This document shows, in pieces, positions 1 through 475 of a stretch of 475 nucleotides of DNA. The notes below the pieces were generated by a model that did no database searches, had not been told where the DNA came from, and saw only the letters and a list, made by a program, of their open reading frames with translations. The position numbers were made by a program, and so were the translations under genes. This DNA is from Escherichia coli (lineage in GTDB: Bacteria; Pseudomonadota; Gammaproteobacteria; Enterobacterales; Enterobacteriaceae): assembly GCF_003334385.1 (NCBI RefSeq), contig NZ_QOWN01000177.1; one strand, 5' to 3'. Each line of letters opens with the position of its first letter. Position 1 is the first letter of the stretch.

Positions 1-280
1 CCCTTATCCTTTGTTGCCAGCGGTCCGGCCGGGAACTCAAAGGAGACTGCCAGTGATAAACTGGAGGAAGGTGGGGATGACGTCAAGTCATCATGGCCCT
101 TACGACCAGGGCTACACACGTGCTACAATGGCGCATACAAAGAGAAGCGACCTCGCGAGAGCAAGCGGACCTCATAAAGTGCGTCGTAGTCCGGATTGGA
201 GTCTGCAACTCGACTCCATGAAGTCGGAATCGCTAGTAATCGTGGATCAGAATGCCACGGTGAATACGTTCCCGGGCCTT

Positions 281-301
281 GTACACACCGCCCGTCACAC
301 C
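281..301 (+). other. rrs: Decoding-centre (A-site) strand of helix 44 and the universal 1392-1406 primer region (E. coli 1392-1412)
   Basis: GTACACACCGCCCGTCACACC. By the n+1111 offset, C289 is C1400, C291 is C1402, G294 is G1405, T295 is U1406, C296 is C1407 and A297 is A1408. All are the wild-type bases. Confidence 0.95.
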
Positions 302-380
302 ATGGGAGTGGGTTGCAAAAGAAGTAGGTAGCTTAACCTTCGGGAGGGCGCTTACCACTTTGTGATTCATGACTGGGGTG

Positions 381-402
381 AAGTCGTAACAAGGTAACCG
401 TA
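381..402 (+). other. rrs: 3' strand of helix 44 with A1492/A1493 (381-382), the colicin E3 cleavage position (between 382 and 383) and m3U1498 (387); universal 1492R primer-binding site
   Basis: AAGTCGTAACAAGGTAACCGTA is the exact reverse complement of the universal primer 1492R (TACGGTTACCTTGTTACGACTT). Its position is consistent with the offset, since 381+1111 = 1492. Confidence 0.95.
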
Positions 403-410
403 GGGGAACC
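403..410 (+). other. rrs: Helix 45 GGAA tetraloop carrying the KsgA/RsmA dimethyladenosine positions A1518/A1519 (window 407-408)
   Basis: GGGGAACC at 403-410, with A407 and A408 mapping to E. coli A1518 and A1519. The loop is universally conserved. Methylation status cannot be read from DNA. Confidence 0.9.
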
Positions 411-423
411 TGCGGTTGGATCA

Positions 424-428
424 CCTCC
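424..428 (+). other. rrs: Anti-Shine-Dalgarno sequence (CCUCC) at the 3' tail of 16S rRNA
   Basis: CACCTCCTTA at 422-431 ends the mature rRNA. CCTCC at 424-428 is the canonical anti-SD that pairs with mRNA ribosome-binding sites. Confidence 0.95.
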
Positions 429-431
429 TTA

Positions 432-475
432 CCTTAAAGAAGCGTACTTTGCAGTGCTCACACAGATTGTCTGAT
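432..475 (+). other. First 44 nt of the 16S-23S internal transcribed spacer (partial; continues beyond window)
   Basis: Sequence immediately 3' of the mature 16S end, CCTTAAAGAAGCGTACTTTGCAGTGCTCACACAGATTGTCTGAT, matches the start of the enterobacterial rrn spacer as I remember it. It is the 3' trailer of the 17S precursor, which pairs with the 5' leader to form the RNase III processing stem (established knowledge). The spacer tRNA gene(s) lie further downstream, outside the window. Confidence 0.9.

Follow-up and report, generated by a model that had tools for sequence, protein, structure and literature searches.

Does a short piece of a ribosomal RNA (rrn) operon stand for one real copy of that operon or for several copies merged during assembly, and do the open reading frames that run through it deserve to be called genes? 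We asked these questions of a stretch of 475 nucleotides, referred to throughout as the window, for which an earlier note made from the letters alone had proposed a multi-copy enterobacterial rRNA locus, at risk of collapse or breakage in assembly and of false gene calls. Our analysis indicates that the window is almost certainly the ordinary 3′ end of a 16S rRNA gene from an enterobacterium of the Escherichia/Shigella/Salmonella type together with the first 44 nt of the adjoining spacer, whether as one copy or as a merge indistinguishable from one. The warnings about assembly and false genes are supported, in that they proved correct wherever they could be checked, and they have long been known; the matter is ordinary, already familiar, and documented since at least 2011.

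The 16S rRNA 3′ end within the window

The identification of an rRNA locus was borne out by cmscan, which placed RF00177, the Rfam family for bacterial small-subunit rRNA, on window 1-431 of the plus strand with a score of 431.3 bits (E 7.6e-136; gathering score 50). The alignment spans positions 1102-1533 of a model 1533 positions long and is truncated at its 5′ end only. These 431 nt (window 1-431, plus strand) are nt 1112-1542 of the E. coli 16S rRNA gene and hold the 3′ part of the 3′ major domain and the entire 3′ minor domain; nt 1-1111 and the leader lie outside the window, whose first base is nt 1112. The annotated end of the rrs gene in K-12 coincides with window 431 (A1542, the mature 3′ end), and window 432-475 (plus strand) takes in the initial 44 nt of the 16S-23S internal transcribed spacer. 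As the 1,542-nt rrsG and rrsD genes end in 431 nt that the window reproduces without insertions or deletions, a constant offset of 1111 converts window coordinates to E. coli numbering.

With this offset of 1111, the expected base was present at every well-known 16S position that we checked, the roles of these positions being established knowledge of the E. coli ribosome. The stretch from C1192 to G1207 occupies window 81-96 (plus strand), with C1192, the spectinomycin site, at window 81 and G1207, the m2G residue, at window 96. Helix 44 and the decoding centre lie at window 288-393 (plus strand; E. coli 1399-1504, limits approximate) and form a long hairpin in the structure line of the cmscan alignment, with C1400, C1402, G1405, C1407, and A1408 found at window 289-297, U1498 at window 387, and A1492 and A1493, the decoding-centre residues, at window 381-382. 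Helix 45 with its GGAA loop is likewise a hairpin in that structure line at window 395-418 (plus strand; TAACCGTAGGGGAACCTGCGGTTG), and it contains G1516, A1518, and A1519 at window 405, 407, and 408, the last two being the adenosines that KsgA dimethylates. The anti-Shine-Dalgarno sequence CCUCCU is located at window 424-429 (plus strand; E. coli 1535-1540). In a ribosome built from this copy, the 30S subunit would owe to the mature part its helix 44, decoding centre included, its helix 45, and its anti-Shine-Dalgarno sequence.

A permissive scan of both strands of the 475-nt window detected no second Rfam family at E<=1, and neither a tRNA nor any promoter-like or terminator-like site was found within the window. 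Its G+C content is even, at 47-57%. Not one sequence feature contradicted the reading as a 16S end followed by spacer. We assume from 100% identity to functional copies that the window's own copy is complete and would be expressed.

Predicted processing of the spacer strand

The window would be transcribed as part of an rrn primary transcript, in which its spacer stretch would pair with the leader upstream of 16S to make a long stem. We modeled this pairing by cofolding the trailer with 175 nt of leader, taken from K-12 rrnH and not from the window's own locus. In the duplexfold prediction made with this K-12 leader, window 437-475 and leader positions -89 to -128 form a near-continuous duplex of -67.5 kcal/mol, and window 432-475 is accordingly modeled as the strand on the 3′ side of the 16S processing stem.

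The 17S precursor carries a 33-nt 3′ extension that is later removed by YbeY and 3′ exoribonucleases (PMC9159920), so that the RNase III cut is predicted to fall after window 464. In the predicted duplex, spacer position +33 lies opposite leader position -117, and +31 lies opposite -115. Young and Steitz reportedly located the 5′ RNase III cut at -115 in 1978, and a cut there, combined with the predicted pairing, would yield the 2-nt stagger expected of RNase III. We infer that RNase III would cleave the stem of the window's copy about 33 nt beyond the mature 3′ end, and that the leftover tail would then be trimmed back to A1542.

Among the seven K-12 operons, the spacer part of the window varies at only two positions, 446 (A/T) and 452 (C/A/T), and all seven share one leader sequence. 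Position 446 pairs with leader position -99 in the predicted stem, where the T variant occurs without a compensating change in the leader, and position 452 bulges out unpaired. We found no compensatory changes between either position and the leader in any of the seven K-12 operons. As covariation is absent, the support for the stem consists of plain complementarity, and the uncompensated A/T variation implies that the base pair at 446 is not strictly required.

Placement among rrn copies and alternative origins

The window has a full-length match of at least 99% identity in all 5,426 of the 5,426 complete E. coli genomes compared, at 37,967 places altogether, with a median of 7 and a range of 1-19 places per genome, and the annotation beneath every E. 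coli match listed reads "16S ribosomal RNA". The earlier estimate of about seven near-identical operons agrees with this median and with the K-12 copies, for which we compared each of the seven MG1655 operons (NC_000913.3) with the window. No mismatches were found in rrnG (spacer tRNA-Glu) or rrnD (tRNA-Ile/tRNA-Ala), whereas one was found in rrnH (tRNA-Ile/tRNA-Ala) at window 9, one each in rrnC and rrnE (both tRNA-Glu) at window 446, one in rrnB (tRNA-Glu) at window 452, and two in rrnA (tRNA-Ile/tRNA-Ala) at window 446 and 452. An O157:H7 strain carries a 100% match in rrnH, in the order gmhB, 16S, tRNA-Ile, tRNA-Ala, 23S, 5S, tRNA-Asp, dkgB, with a repeat unit of about 5.2 kb. Since an operon of about 5 kb is repeated about seven times with at least 99.5% identity over the window, the window cannot be placed on any one operon.

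Neither the type of spacer nor the genus can be read from the window. The K-12 rrsG and rrsD genes with the starts of their spacers are the same at 475 of 475 bases, including the mature 3′ end and spacer positions +1 to +44, whereas the two spacers differ from the fifth base past the window end and also in tRNA content. As rrnG, with tRNA-Glu, and rrnD, with tRNA-Ile and tRNA-Ala, are both identical to the window, the window fits both spacer types. The rrn copy that adjoins purH in Salmonella enterica Infantis SARB27 (AFYI01000006.1, L027 3001-3475) likewise matches the window at every one of the 475 bases, whereas its 16S gene has 36 differences from K-12 rrsB, none of them beyond nt 1038, and its spacer departs from that of E. 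coli starting at +50. Escherichia and Salmonella share the block from 16S nt 1039 to spacer +44, and the window therefore offers no genus-level resolution. All 5,433 matching E. coli records are at least 99% identical to the window, many of them 100%, and together with the Salmonella copy they uphold the enterobacterial assignment; the earlier wording, "Enterobacteria", goes as far as the data permit. Scans for the exact 16S/spacer junction returned at least one viral, at least four genome, and at least four metagenome matches, numbers that are no measure of taxonomic range. The practical point, and the only one, is that a 475-base piece of this kind is not assignable to an operon, nor to Escherichia as opposed to Salmonella.

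The window may be a faithful single copy, or instead a collapsed or consensus repeat contig or a contig end broken at the rrn repeat, and we regard the second reading as a serious possibility at somewhat under an even chance. Short-read assemblers tend to break, collapse, or mis-join at rrn repeats, and the source sequence comprises just 475 bases. At all three variable sites the window carries the majority allele of the K-12 copies (C at 9 in 6/7, A at 446 in 4/7, and C at 452 in 5/7). Its last base, spacer +44, is the final base common to all seven K-12 copies. At +45, four operons have G and three have A, and from that base onward the spacers diverge; a shared assembly-graph node would stop exactly at this 3′ end. 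Fragments broken in such places are known, including a 239-bp Kluyvera contig that consists of just a 16S end and a spacer start, and the contigs at loci L017, L019, L020, and L023 stop within rrn. The window is, however, also exactly equal to real single copies, namely K-12 rrnG and rrnD, O157 rrnH, and the Salmonella Infantis copy, no sequence feature demands a merge, and the window may simply have been cut from a longer sequence. On the 5′ side, the closest upstream site that varies in K-12 is nt 1038, 74 nt before the window, and another K-12 variable site falls inside the window at position 9; as its 5′ end shows no divergence and position 9 is internal, the window is not a K-12-like shared unitig. 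Given its majority alleles and its exact matches, the window could be a consensus and is at the same time identical to a real copy.

Other public sequences bear on a reading of the window as an orphan fragment or a chimera. Four human-gut metagenome or MAG contigs carry chimeric 16S genes, each with a 3′ part that is 100% identical to the window and E. coli and a 5′ part from another taxon that is only 46-90% identical to E. coli per 50-nt block, and the switches occur inside universally conserved 16S segments. These genes lie at L017 11755-13300 (switch near nt 780; filed as an uncultured Desulfovibrio MAG), L020 ~2231-3850 and L021 ~569-2200 (both on the minus strand, with switches near nt 930), and L022 ~8700-10348 (switch near nt 340). 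A 92.8-kb contig filed as viral (L015, IMGVR_UViG_651053022_000007) contains two inverted 69-nt pieces, at 2438-2506 and 10427-10495, made up of the last 19 nt of 16S and the spacer start without a 16S body; tRNA-Ile and tRNA-Ala come after one piece and a single tRNA after the other. Several tandem duplications (171, 98, and 86 nt), nearly identical and lying side by side, also occur in this contig, as do two sok RNAs, and it looks like a stitched draft. Such records speak for the existence of orphan or truncated rrn fragments and of rRNA joined from two organisms, but it is very unlikely that the window is one of these and not part of an intact operon: it contains no break, 475 of its 475 bases are identical to intact operons, and the chimera breakpoints seen near 16S nt 340, 780, and 930 are all upstream of it. 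We consider it extremely unlikely that the window is a free-standing fragment of the 16S 3′ domain, for instance one carried on a mobile element or left as a relic of rearrangement, or, as a variant, that the 84-amino-acid frame at window 77-331 is translated; no observation favored either, and the window is base for base the same as intact functional copies. The ordinary 16S end with its spacer start is the reading that we prefer.

The 5′ end of the window was also considered as a branch point between copies or as a chimera breakpoint, and it matches neither. It comes after a ...GCGCAA stretch that we take to be universally conserved.

Reading frames and rRNA sequence in public records

The window contains six open reading frames of 28-106 amino acids. 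A spurious frame of 106 amino acids starts from TTG and covers window 11-331 on the plus strand; called from the ATG at 77 instead, it gives 84 amino acids over window 77-331 (the exact translation of this version is the database entry P0017). Another spurious frame, of 63 amino acids, runs antisense from window 424 to 233 on the minus strand (its exact translation is P0135). At E<=0.001, the database matches of the 106-amino-acid frame number at least 8,000. The entry P0017 belongs to a cluster of 1,232 members, occurs on at least 1,000 contigs, and is labeled "hypothetical protein [Escherichia coli]" or, in UniRef, "Uncharacterized protein". P0135 is present letter for letter on 1,000 contigs or more, with AKJ43710.1 and BAS38249.1 among its accessions, under labels such as "hypothetical protein" and "identified by metageneannotator". 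Further names among the matches include "ORF16-lacZ fusion protein" in Salmonella Choleraesuis and, in UniRef, "Transposase" from a nematode assembly. RefSeq/PGAP annotates no CDS at the window, only rRNA. The prediction in the earlier note that protein-gene callers would emit spurious CDSs here thus describes what has happened, with two of the window's frames deposited verbatim.

We conclude that these frames are chance frames in a conserved RNA gene and not genes. The breadth of the matches, some of them from distant taxa, such as a Phocaeicola entry at 87% identity (P0075), resembles protein conservation and could be taken to mean that one or more of the frames, P0017 (77-331, plus strand) and P0135 (424-233, minus strand) among them, are real small proteins overlapping rRNA. 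We give this a negligible probability, as what is conserved is the rRNA itself. The region of the frames is identical or nearly so in every locus that we fetched, which deprives a comparison of substitutions by codon position of any power. No Pfam domain was detected in the 106-amino-acid frame (window 11-331) even at E<=10, the starts of its database matches are not conserved, and their lengths vary from 84 to 186 amino acids. The reading frame is also broken in one Salmonella entry (P0072), which switches part-way from the frame of window 11-331 to that of window 196-327. The absence of a PGAP/RefSeq CDS points the same way, and entries of this kind are described in the literature as misannotation (PMC3203614; PMC3308159).

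Open reading frames of E. coli 16S and 23S rRNA genes (rrsH and rrlH) have been widely misannotated as proteins (Tripp et al., 2011; PMC3203614), and misannotation of rRNA reading frames prompted AntiFam (PMC3308159). P0017 and P0135 are alike to these cases, in which reading frames of E. coli 16S rRNA were filed as hypothetical proteins and spread by similarity. In contrast, the Pfam example in print, PF10695, runs antisense to 23S rRNA, whereas P0017 and P0135 derive from the 3′ domain of 16S and belong to no Pfam family. The window is best masked as rRNA ahead of gene calling, and no biological weight is due to its reading frames or to its place in an assembly or bin.

The 90%-identity cluster of P0135 also lists 227-amino-acid Sulfolobus members of the HhH-GPD/endonuclease III type, which is impossible at 90% identity and suggests a fault in clustering or look-up.

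The problem is still current: MAGs contain chimeric 16S genes, rrn operons are deposited as plasmids or phages, and 16S has given rise to thousands of "hypothetical proteins". Two records from E. coli blood isolates, L025 (CP088871.1, 7,211 bp) and L026 (CP088634.1, 6,560 bp), are described as "complete circular plasmids", and each contains one rrn operon (16S, tRNA(s), 23S, and 5S) and little else; most likely, they are the repeat unit emitted by the assembler as a separate circle. Among records filed as phages, OR850364.1 (L028, 1,627 bp) is 97-99% identical to the end of E. coli 16S and the start of 23S, and OR844775.1, OR845267.1, OR850889.1, and PV358070.1 match the window over its full length at 98.1-99.6%. 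These rrn-fragment records are host or contaminant DNA and not phage. In the "complete" genome of E. coli Nissle 1917 (NZ_CP007799.1), a 16S gene at L024 1889-3614 is annotated as 1,726 nt long and has an internal duplication of 183 nt, such that window 1-87 occurs twice, 183 nt apart; this genome has 19 places that match the window, against the usual 7, and the over-long gene is probably an assembly artefact.

Several smaller observations accompany these cases. The contig of an Oxalobacter MAG (L019) stops within an E. coli-like 16S gene, and one of the rrn-fragment "phage" records is named as a Staphylococcus phage. Small records like the two rrn circles were seen under CP088748.1, CP088420.1, CP088631.1, and CP088766.1, and the plasmid collection includes several records of 4.8-4.9 Mb.
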